Virus record (IMG/VR): IMGVR_UViG_2778261182_000009
Span: 1 to 22,745 of that record
DNA length: 22,745 nucleotides
Reading direction: 5' to 3' (one strand)
From: a virus
Taxonomy: Duplodnaviria > Heunggongvirae > Uroviricota > Caudoviricetes
This document shows, one piece after another, positions 10,993 to 20,970 of this stretch. Both the position numbers and the translations under genes were made by a program. The notes below the pieces were generated by a model. That model was not told the origin of the DNA and ran no database searches. It was given only the letters and a program-made list of their open reading frames with translations. Every line of letters begins with the position of its first letter. The stretch's first letter is position 1.

Positions 10993-11349
10993 ATGATTGG
11001 TATTGATTCAGCCACCGGCAGATATCTGCACGGTAACGAACATTTGCGTCAGTCCGTCACCGATATTTTATCAACACCGGTCGGCAGCCGGGTACTTCTC
11101 AGGGAATACGGCAGCAGGTTGTTCAGTCTGCTTGATAACCCACAGGATGATTTCACGCGGGTGAGGATTGTCCGTGAAACGGCAACCGCCCTTGAGCGCT
11201 GGGAACCCCGCCTGACCCTTCGGCGGGTGGAGGTGACGTGGACCGGAGAAGGAAGCGCCTGGCTGACGCTTGTCGGGGTGAACAACGAGACACAGGAAAC
11301 GATTCGACTCGAGGAGATAAAAATTGGCAACGTCTCAGGCAATCATTGA
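10993..11349 (+). CDS. W: Baseplate assembly protein W (P2 gpW family)
   Basis: 118 aa; ...SVTDILSTPVGSRVLLREYGSRLFSLLDNPQDD...ALERWEPRLTL... aligns with P2 gpW (...SIGDILRTPVGSRVMRRDYGSLLASMIDQPQ...LKWEPRVTL...). Confidence 0.82.
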   Translation: MIGIDSATGRYLHGNEHLRQSVTDILSTPVGSRVLLREYGSRLFSLLDNPQDDFTRVRIVRETATALERWEPRLTLRRVEVTWTGEGSAWLTLVGVNNETQETIRLEEIKIGNVSGNH

Positions 11350-12238
11350 TCTGTCCGCGATACCGGTACCGGATGCGGTGGAGGTGCCGGACACCGCTGT
11401 GCTGGTCACTCAGATAGTGGCGAAATATCAGGAGCTGGATACGTTGTTTTCGGCCATGGTGGAATCCGATCCGGCGTATAAATGGGCAGAGGCACTGGCT
11501 TTTCGTGTGGCGCTGATGCGCCAGCAGGTCAATGATGCTGTCCGGGGTGTACTGCTTGCCAGTGCCCGCAGGAACGATCTGGATCAGATTGGTGCGAATT
11601 TTCAGGTGCAACGTCTGGTCATTACCCCGGCAGATGACAGCACCATTCCGCCCACGCCTGCGGTGTATGAAGATGATGATGCTTTTCGCGAACGTATCCA
11701 GTTGTCATGGGCACGACTCAGCACCGCAGGCGCGAAAAACGCATATCACTATTTTGCACAGAGTGCCGATCCTGATGTGCTGGATGTGAAAGCCTACGGG
11801 CCGGAAACGCATTCACAGGAAGGGCGTGTTTTTCTTTATGTGTTATCGCGAACCGGAAACGGTACGGCATCACAACCCCTGCTGGATAAGGTGGCAGCGT
11901 CAGTCAATGATGATGAAATTCGACCTCTGACGGATTTTGTCAGCGTCCGTGCGGCAGAAATTATTCCCTACGATGTGGTGGCGGATATCCATATTCCCTA
12001 CGGGCTTGATGGTGAACTGGTGATGAAAAATGCCCGTCAGGCGCTGCAGACCTACACTGACAGTGTTCACCGGATTGGTTCTGTGGCGTCCTGCTCCGGT
12101 ATGGACGGAGCCCTGCATCAGACGGGGGTGATCACGGTGGCACTGAAATCGCCGGTCAGTGATATTGTTCCGGTGATGGGACAGGCTCCATGGTGTCGCT
12201 CAGTCACACTGAACAAGGTGGAGACAACCGATGAATGA
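11324..12238 (+). CDS. J: Baseplate assembly protein J (P2 gpJ family)
   Basis: 304 aa; probable TTG start at 11324 with GAGGAG 7 nt upstream. Conserved blocks against P2 gpJ: IIDLSAIPVPD, NDLDQIGANF, RLVITPADDSTIPPTPAV, RERIQ, YHYFAQSADPDV, VRPLTDFVSV. Confidence 0.85.
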   Translation: MATSQAIIDLSAIPVPDAVEVPDTAVLVTQIVAKYQELDTLFSAMVESDPAYKWAEALAFRVALMRQQVNDAVRGVLLASARRNDLDQIGANFQVQRLVITPADDSTIPPTPAVYEDDDAFRERIQLSWARLSTAGAKNAYHYFAQSADPDVLDVKAYGPETHSQEGRVFLYVLSRTGNGTASQPLLDKVAASVNDDEIRPLTDFVSVRAAEIIPYDVVADIHIPYGLDGELVMKNARQALQTYTDSVHRIGSVASCSGMDGALHQTGVITVALKSPVSDIVPVMGQAPWCRSVTLNKVETTDE

Positions 12239-14816
12239 CAAAATCAGAAGCATACTTCCTGTCAGCGCCAGCCGGGCAGAGCGGGTGGTGGACAGTACCG
12301 CCGGTGATATGCTGGCGGAAATCGCGGTCTGTCTGATCCGCTATGTCAAAAATCCCGATTTATGTCCGACGGAATTGCTGCCATGGCTGGCCTGGGAAAT
12401 GTCAGTGGATACCTGGAATGAGCACTGGACGGAGGCGGAAAAAAAGGCGGCGATAAAACGTGCTGCCTATATCCATCGTCACAGGGGAACAAAAGCCGCA
12501 CTGAATGAATCCCTGGCAGACAGTCCGTTCCGGTCGCAGATTGTGGAGTGGTATGAGCAGACGCCACCGGGAGATCCCTATACCTTCCGGCTGAATGTGG
12601 AGCAGAAGGATCTGCCGGTTCTGATGAGCGACCACCAGGATTTGAAACATGCCGTACTACGGGCCAAAAATCTGCGCAGCTGGTTCAGTATTCACGTTTA
12701 TGGAAACTGCCGGGGGAACGGATATGGTTATGGCTATGTGACGGCGACGGAAAAACTGAAAAATAAAATCATGCCATCACAGATCCTGTTGTCGCCGGAC
12801 AGTGTGCAACTGGCTCCCGGAGAAACGGTATCCATAAAAGTGACGATATTGCCACTGATCGCTGAAGATCGCACCTTCACTGTTCACCTGGCAGATGAAC
12901 GTGTGGCTGATATACAGGTTGATGGTGATGTAATCACCCTGACCGGCAGACAGTTCGGGTCCACCACGGTGACTGTGATGACGGTTAATGGTGTGACCGC
13001 CACGTTACCCGTAAGCATTGTGTCAGTCACCCGCGTTTTGATCCGGGTGGACAGTGTCAGCAGGCCATTATTTATGGTGGATCCCAGAGAAACAGGATTC
13101 ACCATTGATTATGGTGACGGAACAGATTCCCGGGACTACACCATTTCAGGGAACGATGTTATGACTACCCGGACACTGGCACCGGGGACGGAACTGATGC
13201 TGACGGTGAAAAACTGTGAAAGCATTACGTTTTATAAAACATATACGTCATCAAACCCGTTGCTGGAGATCATTCAGGTCTGTAGTCTGCGCACAAGTAT
13301 GTATCAGTTTGCATACGGGCACCGTGCGCTGAGAAAAATTCATGACGGAGCATTTGATTACCTGGTAAATGTGAATGATTTTGGCAGGGCGTTTATGGGG
13401 TGTTCTGCTCTGGAAACAGTCCCTGAACATTTGTTTGCCGCCTGTCAGCGGGTGCTCTATTTTTCGTATCTTTTCTGTGACTGTTCATCGTTGTCTGCAA
13501 TCCCGGATGGCCTTTTTGCCGGTGCCGGAGAAGTGGTTGATTTTCGTTATGTATTCAGTGGTTGCAGGAAACTTGCCTCCCTGCCTGAAGGATTGTTCGC
13601 CGACGCGGTTAATGCCACTGATTTTTCGTATGCATTCAATAACTGCAGTATGCTGACAGCACTACCCCCGCGTTTGTTTGCGGGAGCCGTATCAGCAACA
13701 AATTTCCACTATGTTTTTAATGGTTGTCGGGCGCTGACTTCCCTGCCGGATGATTTATTCCACGGACTTCATCAGGCCAGTATTTTCTCCCGGGCTTTTG
13801 CACTGACAGGTCTGACGCACCTGCCGGATAACCTGTTTGCTGAAACCCGTGGAACAAATTTTGACAGCGTTTTTTACTCTGCGGAAAAACTGACACGGGT
13901 TCCCCGCACGTTGTTCCATCTGCCGCTTCATGACGGGAATGTCAGAATTATACTGGATGGTGCTTTTGAGTTTTGTAGTGGGTTACTTACAATTGAGCCG
14001 GGTGTGTTTGATGACATTACGACGAAGATACGTTCAGCAAAGCGTGTATTTCGTCGCTGTTATGCACTGAAAGCGATACCGTCCCGTCTGTTTGCTGGTG
14101 CGGTGAACTGTGAATCTTTTAACACATCATTTGAAAGTTGTCTGGCGCTGACCTCCACTGGTGATGAAGTTTTCTCGGGGAGCGGGATCCAGGATGCACA
14201 ATTAATTTTTGCTTATTGCAGTAACCTGACAACGACAGGGGAAAGGTTGTTTGCCGACTGTCGTTCCCTGACGTCATACAACAATTGTTTTTCATCCTGT
14301 TCGTCACTAAGTCAGATCGGTGCAGGTATGTTGTCCGGCTGCGTTTCCCTGAGAACGGCTTATCATCTGTTGACCGATTCCGTGGGGAGTAACCGGGTGA
14401 CAACCGTGCCAGGGGATTTGTTCCGGGGATGTGTTTCCCTGAACAACATCAGCAGTCTGTTTGATTCCTGTGGTCAGTTAACATCAATTCCGGATGAACT
14501 TTTTGCTGATTGTCAGACGATACAGCATGCGGGGGGCGCATTTTCCCGGTGCGTGCGGTTACAACGTGTCCCGGCGGATATTGTTACGCCATCGACGACT
14601 GCATCCAGCCTGGCTTCCATGTTCCGCAACTGTGAACAGCTTGAAATGGATATCAACGATATATTTACCCGGAATTTCCCGTCGGGCTGTAATCTGCTGA
14701 CTATTTTTACCGGCTGTAAAAATGTGACCGGCAGTAAATCTGAATTTCTTGCAAAATTTCCGTCGCCCTCTGATGCAGAGAATGCCTTTTACGGGTGCGA
14801 CCGGCTGACAGACTGA
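12231..14816 (+). CDS. I: Baseplate protein I homolog (P2 gpI-like N-terminal ~175 aa) fused to a ~680 aa extension: predicted Ig-like domain plus a Cys-rich LRR-like repeat array
   Basis: One uninterrupted 861 aa ORF. Residues about 40-175 align with P2 gpI (NPDLCPTELLPWLAWEMSVDTWNEHWTEAEKKAAIKRAAYIHRHRGTKAAL...PPGDPYTFRLNV vs P2 NPDTCPANLLPWLAWAFSVDRWDEKWPEATKRAVIRDAYFIHCHKGTIGAI...PPGTFRLDI). Downstream come an Ig-like segment (SPDSVQLAPGETVSIKVTILP...TTVTVMTVNGVTATLPVSIVS) and 15-20 repeats of about 24 aa of the form F..C..L..(I/L)P..LFA......F...F. P2 gpI is only about 176 aa. Confidence 0.8.
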   Translation: MNDKIRSILPVSASRAERVVDSTAGDMLAEIAVCLIRYVKNPDLCPTELLPWLAWEMSVDTWNEHWTEAEKKAAIKRAAYIHRHRGTKAALNESLADSPFRSQIVEWYEQTPPGDPYTFRLNVEQKDLPVLMSDHQDLKHAVLRAKNLRSWFSIHVYGNCRGNGYGYGYVTATEKLKNKIMPSQILLSPDSVQLAPGETVSIKVTILPLIAEDRTFTVHLADERVADIQVDGDVITLTGRQFGSTTVTVMTVNGVTATLPVSIVSVTRVLIRVDSVSRPLFMVDPRETGFTIDYGDGTDSRDYTISGNDVMTTRTLAPGTELMLTVKNCESITFYKTYTSSNPLLEIIQVCSLRTSMYQFAYGHRALRKIHDGAFDYLVNVNDFGRAFMGCSALETVPEHLFAACQRVLYFSYLFCDCSSLSAIPDGLFAGAGEVVDFRYVFSGCRKLASLPEGLFADAVNATDFSYAFNNCSMLTALPPRLFAGAVSATNFHYVFNGCRALTSLPDDLFHGLHQASIFSRAFALTGLTHLPDNLFAETRGTNFDSVFYSAEKLTRVPRTLFHLPLHDGNVRIILDGAFEFCSGLLTIEPGVFDDITTKIRSAKRVFRRCYALKAIPSRLFAGAVNCESFNTSFESCLALTSTGDEVFSGSGIQDAQLIFAYCSNLTTTGERLFADCRSLTSYNNCFSSCSSLSQIGAGMLSGCVSLRTAYHLLTDSVGSNRVTTVPGDLFRGCVSLNNISSLFDSCGQLTSIPDELFADCQTIQHAGGAFSRCVRLQRVPADIVTPSTTASSLASMFRNCEQLEMDINDIFTRNFPSGCNLLTIFTGCKNVTGSKSEFLAKFPSPSDAENAFYGCDRLTD

Positions 14817-14826
14817 GGTTTTACAG

Positions 14827-16251
14827 ATGCATGGATTAACACTGACGACAGCAGGCGCGGCAGAGATTGAGGCTGCCTACCAGTCAGGACAGGTGGTGAC
14901 CATCACGCACGTGCTCACCGGTGATGGTGGCGGTCAGAAACTGCCTGAAACACCGGATGAAATGGCTGCAATGACAGGGCTGTATGGTCAGTTTGGTCAG
15001 GAGCCACTTTCTGCCGGTGAATCCGGAGAAGGATTTATCCGTGGTGAAATTGTTATTGACTGCAAAAAATACCCCGGAAAAACGCTGCGTGAACTGGGGA
15101 TGGTGAGTGCCAGCGGCACGCTGATAGCGTACGGGCGTTATCCGGATACGTATTTACCGGCACAGACAGATTCCGTCATCAAAGAGGTTATTCTGACGCT
15201 GGTACTGGGGCTGACGCATGCGCAGAATGTGACGCTGGAGCTTGACCCGTCCAGGGTGATTATCACGCAGGAGGCAGGAGATAAACGCTATCTGCGCATC
15301 AGCGAGAATCTTGCCGATGTGGAAGATAAAGATGAAGCAGTTGATAACCTCGGGTTAAAACCGACGGTGGACAAGGCAAAAAATGCCGTTCAGCGCGATG
15401 GTGACACCATGACCGGGGAGCTGAAAATCAGGAGAGTGAATGCGCTGCGAATTTTCGACGAAGCTTTTGGCCTGATTTTTCGTCGTTCGGAAGAGTGCCT
15501 GCACCTTATCCCTACCAGTGAAGGTCAGGGTGAAAATGGCGATATTGGCCCCCTGCGTCCGTTCACTATTAATCTGCGGACCGGTGAGATATCCATGTCG
15601 CACAAAGTGTCTGTTGGTTTTGGCTCTCAGGTGCAGGGCGCACTGGGTATCGGTGTTCAGAATGCGCTGGGCGGTAACTCAATTGCTTTCGGGGATAACG
15701 ATACAGGTATAAAACAAAACGGCGACGGCATTCTGGATGTTTATGCGAATGGACAGCATGTATTTCGTTTCCAGAATGGTGTGGCGACAGCGTTAAAAAA
15801 TATTCAGGCCGGAAATGCTAAAAAATTCACGTTATCCAGCGCCAACAACTCAACGAAAAACGCAACGTTTAATTTATGGGGCAATTCGTCCCGTCCTGTA
15901 GTTGCAGAGCTTGGTGATGATTCCGGCTGGCATTTTTACAGCCAGAGAAATACGGATAACAGTATAACGTTCGCTGTAAACGGACAGATGGTCCCGTCAA
16001 ATTATGGAAATTTCGATGCCCGTTACCAGACCAAATCAGGGGGCGTGCAGAATTTTCAGTACACCAGTGAGGTGTTTTACAACCCTGGTGGGAATGAGCG
16101 CAGCTGGACGTTTCGGGCACCTTCTGGTTGTGTTTTGTCAGGCATTAATGTTCAGGACACTGGCAGTAACTCTGCAGATAATATCGGTGGCGTGTATTAC
16201 AAACAGGCTCAGATTTATATTGATGGCGCATGGCGCTCAGTATCAGGTTAA
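14827..16251 (+). CDS. H: Tail fiber protein (P2 gpH family)
   Basis: 474 aa; the N-terminus ...LTTAGAAEIEAAY...TGDGGG is fiber-like, and a long block NALGGNSIAFGDNDTGIKQNGDGILDVYANGQHVFRFQNGVATALKNIQAGNAKKFTLSSANNSTKNATFNLWGNSSRPVVAELGDDSGWHFYSQRNTDNSITFAVNGQMVPSNYGNFDARY matches the P2 gpH family. Followed by a fiber assembly gene. Confidence 0.85.
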   Translation: MHGLTLTTAGAAEIEAAYQSGQVVTITHVLTGDGGGQKLPETPDEMAAMTGLYGQFGQEPLSAGESGEGFIRGEIVIDCKKYPGKTLRELGMVSASGTLIAYGRYPDTYLPAQTDSVIKEVILTLVLGLTHAQNVTLELDPSRVIITQEAGDKRYLRISENLADVEDKDEAVDNLGLKPTVDKAKNAVQRDGDTMTGELKIRRVNALRIFDEAFGLIFRRSEECLHLIPTSEGQGENGDIGPLRPFTINLRTGEISMSHKVSVGFGSQVQGALGIGVQNALGGNSIAFGDNDTGIKQNGDGILDVYANGQHVFRFQNGVATALKNIQAGNAKKFTLSSANNSTKNATFNLWGNSSRPVVAELGDDSGWHFYSQRNTDNSITFAVNGQMVPSNYGNFDARYQTKSGGVQNFQYTSEVFYNPGGNERSWTFRAPSGCVLSGINVQDTGSNSADNIGGVYYKQAQIYIDGAWRSVSG

Positions 16252-16264
16252 TTAAGGAAAAATA

Positions 16265-16792
16265 ATGGAACTCGTAAACGTTACGCGTTACTACCCTGAA
16301 GACATGCCTTATGGTGAAGGCATTCAGTATTTCCGTAGTGAAGACGGGCAGGATTTTTATGAATCACTGGATAAATTCACGAAGAAATACAAGCTGTGCA
16401 CGCATCCTGAAACCGGCATTATTTATTCCATGGCGGAAGATGTATCCCGTCTTTATCCCGTTGGTTTTACCATTGTGGAAGTGGATGAACTACCGGAAGG
16501 ATTTTGTATTGAAGCCCGCTGGTATTATAAAGACGGTGAAGTACTGCCGGTCCCTGTAGACTACCGGCAGCAGGCAGAGTCGGAGCGTGCACGTCTTACT
16601 GCGATTGCCGAACGGGAAATATCCGATAAGAAGACGGATTTACTTCTGGGAATCATCAGTGATGAGGAAAAAGAAAAGCTGACAGCCTGGCGTGTTTACG
16701 CAAAGGAACTGCAGGTGATGGATTTCAGCGCCATTGTGGATAAGAGCGCTTATGACAATATTGCCTGGCCTGAATCACCACAAAATATCTGA
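16265..16792 (+). CDS. G: Tail fiber assembly protein (P2 gpG family)
   Basis: 175 aa, immediately downstream of the fiber gene, with a suitable RBS (AAGGAAAAATA-ATG). The ...RQQAESERARLTAIAEREI... segment resembles the conserved region of tail fiber assembly chaperones. Confidence 0.75.
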   Translation: MELVNVTRYYPEDMPYGEGIQYFRSEDGQDFYESLDKFTKKYKLCTHPETGIIYSMAEDVSRLYPVGFTIVEVDELPEGFCIEARWYYKDGEVLPVPVDYRQQAESERARLTAIAEREISDKKTDLLLGIISDEEKEKLTAWRVYAKELQVMDFSAIVDKSAYDNIAWPESPQNI

Positions 16793-16809
16793 AAAAAGTG
16801 AATCAACAG

Positions 16810-18884: not shown

Positions 18885-18897
18885 AAAGGAGATGCTT

Positions 18898-19200
18898 ATG
18901 TCGGAAAAAAACAGTGTTCCTGCCAGCAGCGTGGAAATTGTGTTATCCGTGCCGTATGTCACCGCATCAGGGCAGACGATCACGCACATCACCATGCGTG
19001 CACCCACCGTCCGCGATCGTCTGTTGCATCGACGGAGTACCAAACCGGAAGCAGAGGCTGACCTGGATATGATTGCCGGTCTTTGCGGGATGGATGCGGC
19101 GGACATGATGAACATGGAAGCGTGTGATTACCTGGCCCTGGAGCGGCAGTTTAATGTTTTTTTGCTGCCGCCGGTCCGGCGGAAGAAGACAGCATCCTGA
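18898..19200 (+). CDS. E: Tail assembly chaperone (P2 gpE-like)
   Basis: ORF 18892..19200; AGGAG at 18887-18891 favours the ATG at 18898. Small protein between the tube and tape-measure genes; its 3' end contains a T7G slippery run. Confidence 0.7.
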   Translation: MSEKNSVPASSVEIVLSVPYVTASGQTITHITMRAPTVRDRLLHRRSTKPEAEADLDMIAGLCGMDAADMMNMEACDYLALERQFNVFLLPPVRRKKTAS

Positions 19201-19337
19201 CAGCGATACGGCGTGCTGGTGCCTGGTTCGGGTGGTCTCCCGGAGATGTGATGGCGCTGCCGTATACGGATTTTGTGTCAATGATGCTGGCAGAGTCGGA
19301 AGAGAGGAAACGACGTTATGGCAACGGTTGGCGATAA
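18898..19337 (+). CDS. Tail assembly chaperone frameshift product (P2 E+E'-like), made by a programmed -1 ribosomal frameshift
   Basis: The zero frame reads ...NVFLLPPVRRKKTAS and stops at 19198-19200. The -1 frame opens right at the slippery site (a stop at 19152-19154 sits just upstream in that frame) and runs stop-free from 19158 to a TAA at 19335-19337 (FFAAAGPAEEDSILTAIRRAGAWFGWSPGDVMALPYTDFVSMMLAESEERKRRYGNGWR), overlapping the tape-measure start as in P2. Confidence 0.55.
19157..19164 (+). other. Slippery sequence TTTTTTTG for the -1 programmed frameshift (E to E')
   Basis: T-run at 19157-19163 followed by G; the zero-frame codons are GTT TTT TTG. This is the same heptamer class used for the chaperone frameshift in P2-like tail operons. 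Confidence 0.55.
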
Positions 19338-20970
19338 CCTTAAAGCGAATATCAGGATCGGCGGCACGATAGATCCGTCGTGGAAAAAATCGGTTGATGG
19401 ACTGAAGCACGGATTATCAGGGGCAACACAGGAGGTGGCTCGCCTGACACGCCAGCAGGATGTACTGAAACGAAAAATTCAGGCTGGTGCACTGGCTGGA
19501 CAGGATATTACTGAACTGCGAAAGCAGTATGAAAAGCTGGGCAAAAAAATTCATGATGCCACCGGAGAGCAGGACAAATTTAACCGTAAGCTGGCTCGTG
19601 CTGAACGTCTGGAACGCTGGAAAGGGCGGGCCGGGACGGTCCTTAAAACCGGTTTTGGGCTTTCTGTTGGTTCGGGGTTGATGCTGGCAGCGGGCACTAC
19701 CGCTGTGCTTAACCGGAATACGGAAACGGCAGAGCGGGCAGGGATAGCCCGCAGTTATGGTGTGGATTATGAAACCTATGCGGCATGGGATTCACTTGCC
19801 CGACTGATGGGGCTGAATGGTGAAAACATCGGTGATCTGTTTGAGGAGTACCGGAACAAGGTTTTTGACGATGATAATGGTGCCACGGATAAAGGGGCCA
19901 TTCAGGAGGTGTTTGGTGCGCTGGGGCTGAAAGCCGGGGTGATGGCCGGAAAAAGCAACCAGGAGCAGGTCGAATTTTTATTTGATCGCTTACTGCAGGT
20001 AGAGAATGAACAGGTGGCAGCCGGGATGGCAGATGCGTTGTTTGGTGGTGAGGCCAATAAAATTCTGACCTGGATGCGTCTGTCAGGAAAAACTTACCGG
20101 GAGCTTATCAGTGAGCAGAAACGCTATAACCTGGTGACAAAGGCAGGGGCAGATGGCGCAGTTCAGGGGCATATGGCGCTGTCAAATCTCAGTAATGTTC
20201 TGAGTTCGTCCATTGATGAAATCAGCGGGCAACTGGGTAAGGAGCTGGCACCACATATTCAACAGGTGACGGATGACCTTGCGGCCTGGTTTAAGTATGG
20301 TGGACTGGAAAAAATCCGGGCATTTATCCGTGATGATGCCCTGCCGGCGCTGATCGACATGGCAGCATGGATGTGGAAATTCGGAAAAGTTCTGGCTGGA
20401 ATCACACAAAAAGCCATTGAGTGGGGGTTAGCGGATGATCCACGAGAGGACCGGCGAGAGGTGCTGGAATATCTGGCAAAAATGGGGTCGCCGGAGCTGG
20501 CGAGAGCGGTGGCGCAGAAAAACGGTCAGGGTGAATGGTTTGATGAACTTATCAGGCAAAATCCGGACCTGACGAAACAGGTTGTACAGGCCTATAAAGA
20601 CACCCGCGGTTATTTCCCCTGGAATCATGACGATAAAAAGTTTGATGCATTTCTCGACCCTTTGCTGGGACCGAAGGAAGAACCTGATTTTAAGGCGATA
20701 AAAGAGAAATCCCGCACCTACATTGACGGACTTCCTGCGGCAGGTCAGGGACAGGAAAATCCTGATCGCCTTTCAGCCCTCCAGTATACACCCGGCAGTA
20801 TCAGCAAGGTGGAAGTAAAACCCACATATCAGATACGGGCCGAATTTAACATCACCCAGAAATCTGGCGAGGATGCCGGACAACTGGCAGACAGGGTGAC
20901 GAAAAATCTGGGGGATATTCATTTTGGTCAGCGTTCCCGTATGACTGATGGTTATGAATCCTGGGGGTGA
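19318..20970 (+). CDS. T: Tail tape measure protein (P2 gpT position)
   Basis: 550 aa, predicted largely alpha-helical (coiled-coil-like, with charged heptad-like runs), and a Gly/hydrophobic segment (GFGLSVGSGLMLAAGTTAVL). It lies after the E/E' chaperone genes and before U, as for P2 gpT. Confidence 0.82.
   Translation: MATVGDNLKANIRIGGTIDPSWKKSVDGLKHGLSGATQEVARLTRQQDVLKRKIQAGALAGQDITELRKQYEKLGKKIHDATGEQDKFNRKLARAERLERWKGRAGTVLKTGFGLSVGSGLMLAAGTTAVLNRNTETAERAGIARSYGVDYETYAAWDSLARLMGLNGENIGDLFEEYRNKVFDDDNGATDKGAIQEVFGALGLKAGVMAGKSNQEQVEFLFDRLLQVENEQVAAGMADALFGGEANKILTWMRLSGKTYRELISEQKRYNLVTKAGADGAVQGHMALSNLSNVLSSSIDEISGQLGKELAPHIQQVTDDLAAWFKYGGLEKIRAFIRDDALPALIDMAAWMWKFGKVLAGITQKAIEWGLADDPREDRREVLEYLAKMGSPELARAVAQKNGQGEWFDELIRQNPDLTKQVVQAYKDTRGYFPWNHDDKKFDAFLDPLLGPKEEPDFKAIKEKSRTYIDGLPAAGQGQENPDRLSALQYTPGSISKVEVKPTYQIRAEFNITQKSGEDAGQLADRVTKNLGDIHFGQRSRMTDGYESWG

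Follow-up and report, generated by a model that had tools for sequence, protein, structure and literature searches.

A leucine-rich repeat extension on a gpI-type baseplate wedge protein of an Escherichia coli prophage, a candidate accessory adhesin arm

The window analysed here is the whole of IMG/VR virus record IMGVR_UViG_2778261182_000009 (positions 1 to 22,745), a stretch of 22,745 nucleotides (nt) from a tailed phage of the Caudoviricetes, and our subject is one long gene within it. The gene encodes an 861-amino-acid (aa) protein of the gpI type, a subunit of the baseplate wedge, and most of the length of the protein is a C-terminal extension that ends in a leucine-rich repeat (LRR) array. 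An earlier reading of the window, made from the sequence only, had noticed a cysteine-rich repeat array from nt 13278 onward, which is codon 350 of the open reading frame (ORF) 12231..14816, and had placed it in a phage tail gene. The gene does belong to a tail cluster; however, the carrier of the array is the baseplate wedge protein gpI and not a tail fibre. The exact protein is recorded in the E. coli assembly GCA_002230665.1, and RefSeq labels a 93.8%-identical gene “phage tail protein I”. The architecture described below is therefore already in public records under that name.

From the N-terminus, the protein is made up of a gpI core, a Big_2 immunoglobulin-like (Ig-like) domain, a PKD-like beta-sandwich cap and the LRR array (Table 1). 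The core scored 117 bits against PF09684 (cut-off 20.6 bits) and 93 bits against the equivalog TIGR01634 (cut-off 30 bits) and is thus a member of the gpI family. It also matched Tri2 (PA0619; 6u5b) of the pyocin R2 baseplate with an E value of 6.6e-18. In agreement with this assignment, the surrounding genes have the order that is seen for P2 gpI (gpV-gpW-gpJ-gpI-fibre-assembly) and lie in a contractile-tail cluster.

Table 1. Features of the extended gpI gene and of its neighbours in the window
Feature	Position (nt)	Strand	Basis
Extended gpI-type baseplate wedge gene	12231..14816	+	861 aa plus stop codon (ORF listing)
gpI core, baseplate wedge/triplex subunit	12231..12764 (aa 1-178)	+	Pfam Tail_P2_I (PF09684) aa 9-149, E 7e-34
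Big_2 Ig-like domain, spacer	12771..13016 (aa 181-262)	+	Pfam Big_2 aa 185-254, 26-30 bits vs 22.8
Beta-sandwich cap with PKD-like “FTIDYGDG...” motif	13017..13307 (aa 263-359)	+	Six predicted beta-strands
LRR array	13308..14813 (aa 360-861, 502 aa)	+	18 full 27-aa units and one 9-aa partial unit
gp25/gpW	10993-11349		P2-type contractile-tail cluster
gpJ-type baseplate wedge protein, gpI partner	11324..12238	+	Pfam Baseplate_J E 2.6e-23; baseplate families phrog_6 and phrog_4226
Conventional tail fibre, 474 aa	14827..16251	+	Pfam Phage_tail_fib N-terminal domain; tail-fibre PHROGs
Tail fibre assembly protein, 175 aa	16265..16792	+	Pfam Caudo_TAP E 1.5e-21; phrog_136

The Big_2 domain matched the C-terminal Ig-like domain of the lambda tail tube protein V (2l04 and 7t4f; Foldseek, phmmer), and its AlphaFold2 model had a predicted local distance difference test score (pLDDT) mostly above 80. 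For the cap domain, pLDDT was mostly 86-95 with one lower block (74). Its relatives in Bacteroidales and elsewhere share the consensus “TIDWGDG...THTY...GEY..V.G”, and several structural matches in BFVD are named “PKD domain-containing protein”. A Pfam scan of the cap gave no PKD match, even at E <= 10; we call the domain PKD-like for its resemblance in motif and in the names of its BFVD neighbours. The cap travels together with the LRR array.

To describe the array we computed a BLOSUM62 autocorrelation over aa 350-861. The strongest lag was 27 residues (z = 14.7 against 200 shuffles), with harmonics at lag 54 (z 7.6) and lag 81 (z 5.1), and a weaker half-unit pseudo-repeat was detected in which F..C recurs at +13/+14 (z 3.6-3.9). 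The periodicity is therefore far above chance, but the unit is 27 aa long and not 23-25 aa as first estimated. Units were parsed by motif and with a seed hidden Markov model, and the canonical unit is F-x-x-C-x-x-L-x-x-[IVL]-P-x-x-L-F-x(8)-F-x-x-x. Other parts of the sequence-only reading were borne out: the 18 full units and one partial unit fall within its estimate of about 15-20, and all six of the motif strings that it quoted are present, at aa 388, 442, 469, 496, 607 and 744. The C-terminus is cysteine-rich, as it had also claimed, with 4.9% Cys in the last 512 aa compared to 1.1% in the N-terminal part; Phe makes up 8.8% of the same region and Leu is enriched as well. The final ~66 aa of the array form a conserved C-terminal cap.

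At the DNA level, Tandem Repeats Finder reported no tandem repeat, even at a score of 30, and a search for DNA repeats returned only stretches of 14-27 nt with 68-94% identity, several of them spaced 81 nt apart. These results rule out a recent duplication or a slippage-prone array, and they uphold the view that the array is an old one. We also observed that the AT skew is strongly negative (to -0.34) over 13400-14800, the LRR-coding DNA. The skew arises from codons rich in T, namely those of Phe, Leu, Cys and Ser, and does not signal replication.

The units had been likened to BspA-type (LRR_5-like) repeats, and this assignment is supported. The whole protein scored 33.4 bits against Pfam LRR_5 (PF13306), above the gathering score of 27.7, and aa 350-861 scored 39.6 bits in three matched stretches. 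Similar results were obtained with the gpI homologues of E. coli M8 (37.8 bits) and Klebsiella (41.3 bits), both of which also passed. The match is not to a repeat of the same length. The LRR_5 model consists of six copies in 127 positions, and 97 residues of the query align to 84 positions of the model. The TpLRR consensus is 23 residues. With a period of 27 aa, which the family consensus shows too, the window array departs from the canonical LRR_5/BspA unit of ~21-23 residues.

DUF285 (PF03382) and the PARCEL repeat (TIGR02167) gave 14.6 bits and 22 bits, under their cut-offs of 25 and 30 bits, respectively. PARCEL repeats have a unit of 25-26 residues and their coding DNA has dyad symmetry (Roske et al. 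2010, PMC2996958), whereas the window array has a 27-aa unit and only three weak inverted repeats in 1.5 kb. We therefore rejected membership of the window protein in PARCEL or DUF285, as its scores are below the cut-offs, its period is wrong and dyad symmetry is not evident. The DUF285 threshold was passed, on the other hand, by three close relatives: the Klebsiella gpI and the proteins P0007 and P0134 (see below). Judged by these profile scores, the boundary of the DUF285 family runs through the relatives of the window array, and the array itself is best described as a long-unit subclass that would lie between the LRR_5 and DUF285/PARCEL models within the LRR clan.

Structure models are consistent with this assignment. 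AlphaFold2 modelling of the full protein with 12 homologues gave pLDDT >90 over most of aa 181-861, and modelling of aa 262-861 with 40 homologues gave a pLDDT of 94.7 and a predicted template modelling score (pTM) of 0.90. The modelled array is an LRR solenoid, and it resembles solved LRR_5 structures; the surface proteins 4gt6, 4h09 and 4fs7 of gut commensals are among its top structural relatives. The periodic cysteines occupy one fixed position in the core of the solenoid, as they do in the “cysteine ladder” of InlJ (3bz5). Because of this fixed position, the InlJ precedent and assembly of the virion in a reducing cytoplasm, they are most likely a buried ladder of free thiols and not disulfides. 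Nothing in our analysis supported a disulfide-rich protein, and the disulfide mapping of the virion protein that had been suggested is probably beside the point.

Around the gpI gene, the gpJ gene overlaps the gpI start by 8 nt, the sheath and tube genes come after the fibre assembly gene, and lambda-like head genes are found upstream of the tail cluster. Farther downstream (18892-19372), a slippery run, TTTTTTTG, lies at 19157-19164 in the ORF of a tail assembly chaperone (18892..19200), and the -1 frame is open to ~19350, overlapping the start of the tape-measure gene at 19318. This arrangement is that of the canonical P2 gpE / gpE+E' programmed -1 frameshift.

The gpI extension is optional. 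The gpI gene of E. coli A10 has 95.6% DNA identity to that of the window over its first 525 nt, and it then encodes a 20-aa tail; the resulting protein of 196 aa aligns almost identically with the window gpI up to ~aa 175. The best 120 homologues of the gpI core in a set of 5.8 billion proteins were all 134-278 aa long. Because candidates for this list were limited by shared words, it contained no long forms; it establishes the short form as the usual one but gives no true frequency for the long form. At least 80% of the prophage region was found in 66 of 5426 complete E. coli genomes, while a long gpI was found in only four of the 5426. The window type of LRR was present in one complete E. 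coli genome, with 91% DNA identity. A second type, with ~16 units, was present in the three mouse isolates M8, RSHH22 and SK6988, where the gpI is 803 aa long and 100% identical. As judged from P0010, a near-identical protein of 803 aa, the M8-type array is ~40% identical to that of the window. All of the long-gpI carriers that we saw are intestinal isolates, from human or mouse. In M8 (L002, NZ_CP019953.1; 6001-8412 and 10461-12891), IS66 lies right after the fibre assembly gene and separates it from the sheath gene.

Compared to the extension, the tail fibre follows a different pattern. A short-gpI prophage has a fibre that shares 91% identity with the window fibre and almost the same tip; in the nearest long-gpI prophage the tip differs. 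Since the fibre and its assembly protein are intact and the tip assorts independently, the extension is an add-on and not a replacement. The fibre tip and the assembly gene (15900-16800) have the lowest GC content of the region (0.44-0.47, compared to 0.52-0.59 in the baseplate and sheath genes), and the last ~55 aa differ between fibres that are otherwise 89% identical. This segment is the usual mosaic specificity cassette.

The extension is mosaic and is swapped as a module. Between P0010 and the window protein, identity falls from 96% in the core to 85% in Big_2, 52% in the cap and 40% in the LRR array. In a comparison with the closest relative, strain 401651 (window 12231-14813; L001 8001-10583), synonymous divergence (dS) was 0.03 for aa 1-262 and 0.16-0.22 for aa 263-861. 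This six-fold jump at ~aa 262 indicates a recombination boundary at the junction of Big_2 and cap. The GC content of the array is 0.46-0.50, compared to 0.52-0.58 in the baseplate core genes.

The array is under purifying selection, with a ratio of nonsynonymous to synonymous divergence (dN/dS) of 0.28. Repeat positions F0, L6, P10, L13 and F14 are invariant and C3 and F23 nearly so; positions 2, 4, 8, 21 and 24 are the most variable, and the variation falls at exposed positions. The comparison of unit number among homologues that had been proposed shows that it does vary: the gpI fusions have ~9.4, 10.4, 15.4, 16.4, 18.6 and 23.7 units, the two lowest counts being from N-terminally incomplete proteins.

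A megablast search of 50,697 phage records gave no match, and relatives of the gene were reached by protein-level search only. The same architecture occurs in the 1008-aa gpI of Klebsiella phage ST16-OXA48phi5.4 (Peduoviridae), and it is conserved, with 40-45% identity, among the phages of E. coli, Salmonella and Klebsiella. The module of cap and 27-aa LRR (phrog_9915) is not confined to gpI. Among fusion proteins taken from the repeat-family search (P0156, P0170, P0134, P0143 and P0166), it is carried by DUF2612/phrog_587 structural proteins, by collagen-like fibre N-termini and by a siphovirus-type “major tail protein with Ig-like domain” (phrog_807). There may thus be phages in which the tail tube is studded with LRR arrays along its full length. 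A Phapecoctavirus protein that is encoded within a receptor-binding gene cluster ends in a shorter version of the module, and marine cyanophages, Bacillus phage G and giant viruses have the module as well. The close non-phage relative P0007 is a Bacteroidales-type surface lipoprotein with BACON domains. In the Phapecoctavirus Escherichia phage tuntematon (L006, NC_052660.1; 3177-5849), the “tail protein” gp128 carries two Big_2 domains along with an RCC1-like beta-propeller and ends in a short stretch of this same LRR type, and its gene adjoins those of a tail fibre and a colanic-acid-degrading protein.

At E <= 1e-3 the repeat family comprised 14,011 clusters (50% identity), of which 986 remained at E <= 1e-30. 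A structural search of BFVD gave 72 viral matches at E <= 0.001; among those listed, many are phage proteins annotated as BspA-family or LRR. The earlier reading had called such repeats better known from bacterial surface adhesins than from enterobacterial phage tails; modules of this type are, however, no rarity among phages.

What could such a module do on a baseplate? P2 gpI corresponds to T4 gp7 and to TssG, the wedges have the stoichiometries (gp6)2-(gp7)1 and (TssF)2-(TssG)1, and the TssG-class subunit recruits the receptor-binding-like protein TssK in the type VI secretion system (PMC6300606). We propose that a mobile module, comprising the Big_2 spacer, the cap and a 19-unit LRR solenoid with a buried Cys/Phe/Leu core, has been fused to the C-terminus of gpI. 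Because gpI-class subunits (T4 gp7, TssG and Tri2) are present as a single copy per wedge, each virion would have six monomeric arms, and these would project at the baseplate rim beside the six trimeric tail fibres. The variable exposed residues of the solenoid would then contact a ligand on a surface, for which a component of the bacterial envelope is the most plausible candidate. In this way the arms could keep the baseplate close to the cell, so that adsorption is improved or modulated, with primary specificity still supplied by the conventional fibre.

We put the probability that the extension forms accessory adhesin arms binding a bacterial envelope ligand at roughly 60%. Ig-like decoration domains of phages are generally thought to aid adsorption by weak surface binding. 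It is the parallels with these domains that point to an accessory adhesin: the extension is likewise optional, has many fusion partners, varies at exposed positions and is under selection. From the Tri2 homology and the wedge stoichiometry (PMC6300606) we infer one copy per wedge; display of the arms at the rim of the baseplate, their role as adhesins and the nature of the ligand are likewise deduced.

Several considerations weigh against this proposal. The gpI core was modelled poorly, with pLDDT <50 at aa 1-40 and 79-181, and so the model does not place the arm with respect to the baseplate. We infer the adhesin function from position and fold alone. Any solenoid is expected to vary at its exposed positions, and such variation is no proof of a binding surface. 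LRRs are general protein-binding scaffolds, and the ligand could belong to the phage or to the animal host. Finally, few E. coli genomes carry the extension, and any benefit that it confers must therefore be conditional.

One alternative gives the LRR arm the primary role in receptor binding and in setting the host range, the downstream fibre being secondary. The array has been swapped between near-identical gpI cores (96% identity in the core, 40% in the LRR), its low GC content is typical of exchanged specificity modules such as the fibre tip and assembly gene, and the related Phapecoctavirus module belongs to a receptor-binding cluster, all of which would fit such a role. It is nonetheless unlikely, as most of the prophage lineage is without the extension yet has the same fibre and assembly protein, and the fibre tip assorts independently of the extension. 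The primary receptor-binding proteins of P2-type tails, moreover, are trimeric fibres.

Another possibility is that the arm recognises a gut ligand that is not bacterial, for example mucin glycans or another surface molecule of the animal host. It might then serve in mucus retention, as proposed for capsid Ig-like domains, or in contact with host cells, like the oral BspA adhesins. BspA-family proteins are adhesins to host matrix. The intestinal origin of all the carriers seen is consistent with this idea, as are the nearest non-phage relatives, which are surface proteins with BACON domains from gut Bacteroidales (Phocaeicola), and the presence of gut-commensal LRR_5 proteins (4gt6, 4h09 and 4fs7) among the best structural relatives. 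However, the occurrence of the module in marine cyanophages, Bacillus phage G and giant viruses means that it is not gut-specific, and its position on the baseplate and not on the capsid suggests adsorption to the bacterial cell. We regard a gut ligand as quite unlikely. It could be speculated more broadly that monomeric LRR solenoids are an unrecognised and widely used host-recognition module of phages, shuffled between gut Bacteroidales lipoproteins and the baseplates, tubes and fibres of unrelated phages, and that the arms described here might bind an animal-host or mucus ligand. If true, the arms would give the virion niche targeting independent of infection; we hold this, too, to be quite doubtful.

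A role within the virion appears very unlikely. By protein-protein contacts of its concave LRR face, the arm might fasten or orient the fibres of its own phage, or keep the baseplate stable before contraction; LRRs are classic scaffolds for protein-protein interaction, and peripheral baseplate proteins dock on gpI-class subunits (PMC6300606). Yet the same fibre works with a gpI of 196 aa, the module also occurs on tail-tube and fibre proteins that have no such partner, and the LRR diverges far more rapidly than any partner in the virion. Lastly, a functionless passenger, that is a selfish or decaying insertion at a permissive C-terminus, would agree with the rarity of the extension in E. coli (4/5426) and its dispensability in relatives but is highly improbable given a frame intact over 2.05 kb, a dN/dS of 0.28, nearly invariant core repeat positions, a highly confident structure model and an architecture conserved across E. 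coli, Salmonella and Klebsiella phages.

Current models of host recognition are built on trimeric fibres and tailspikes, and this locus presents what is predicted to be a monomeric LRR solenoid, attached to gpI via an Ig-like spacer. At the level of sequence the reading is firm. The concept itself comes as no surprise, and LRR arms are common in sequence databases. What the lineage offers is a set of natural variants (without extension, with ~16 units and with ~19 units) in near-identical tails and in a tractable E. coli host. Comparing these variants could reveal the role of the arm, which could in turn serve the prediction of host range from sequence and the engineering of phages and tailocins.

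Our search of the literature found no description of, or experiment on, a gpI-LRR fusion or an LRR-type phage receptor-binding protein, and no ligand-binding, adsorption or host-range data for any member of the module. One lead connecting LRR_5 with phages, in the SPLASH preprint, proved unrelated.

The window protein can nevertheless be compared with several known systems. The LRR_5 surface proteins of gut bacteria, BACOVA_04585 (4fs7), FAEPRAA2165_01021 (4gt6) and EUBVEN_01088 (4h09), are secreted or anchored at the cell surface, whereas the window array is carried by a phage baseplate subunit; the LRR_5 model also has ~21-23 positions per copy, compared to 27 aa per unit here. With DUF285/PARCEL the array shares the “F.gC..L” motif followed ~20 residues on by a hydrophobic F/M, as well as variable repeat number, a patchy and seemingly horizontal spread and a link to surface proteins (PMC2996958). 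The N-terminal 178 aa make the protein a member of the family of P2 gpI, Tri2, T4 gp7 and TssG, and the P2 gene order gpW-gpJ-gpI-fibre is shared. A typical gpI, on the other hand, is ~180-210 aa long, and that of the window has ~680 aa more. T4 gp7 is also greatly enlarged, with unrelated domains. The Big_2 domain of lambda gpV (2l04) is a non-essential, promiscuously fused and outward-facing accessory domain, and the LRR module is equally promiscuous. Unlike in gpV, however, the Ig-like domain here is a mere spacer, and the terminal element is an LRR solenoid of ~500 aa, which is much larger and belongs to another fold class.

The only relevant items in the literature concern jumbo phages. 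ORFs annotated as DUF285/PARCEL and as BspA-family are listed in the genome table of a Vibrio jumbo phage. In the jumbo phage Goslar, which offers the closest published parallel, LRR and beta-helix domains are predicted on the DUF7941 proteins of a “fibre cloud” at the baseplate periphery and have been proposed to act in host recognition (bioRxiv 10.64898/2026.04.21.720040). Goslar thus resembles the present case in having a predicted LRR at the periphery of the baseplate, and it too is a prediction; it differs in that the anchor is DUF7941 and not gpI, and in belonging to another group of phages.

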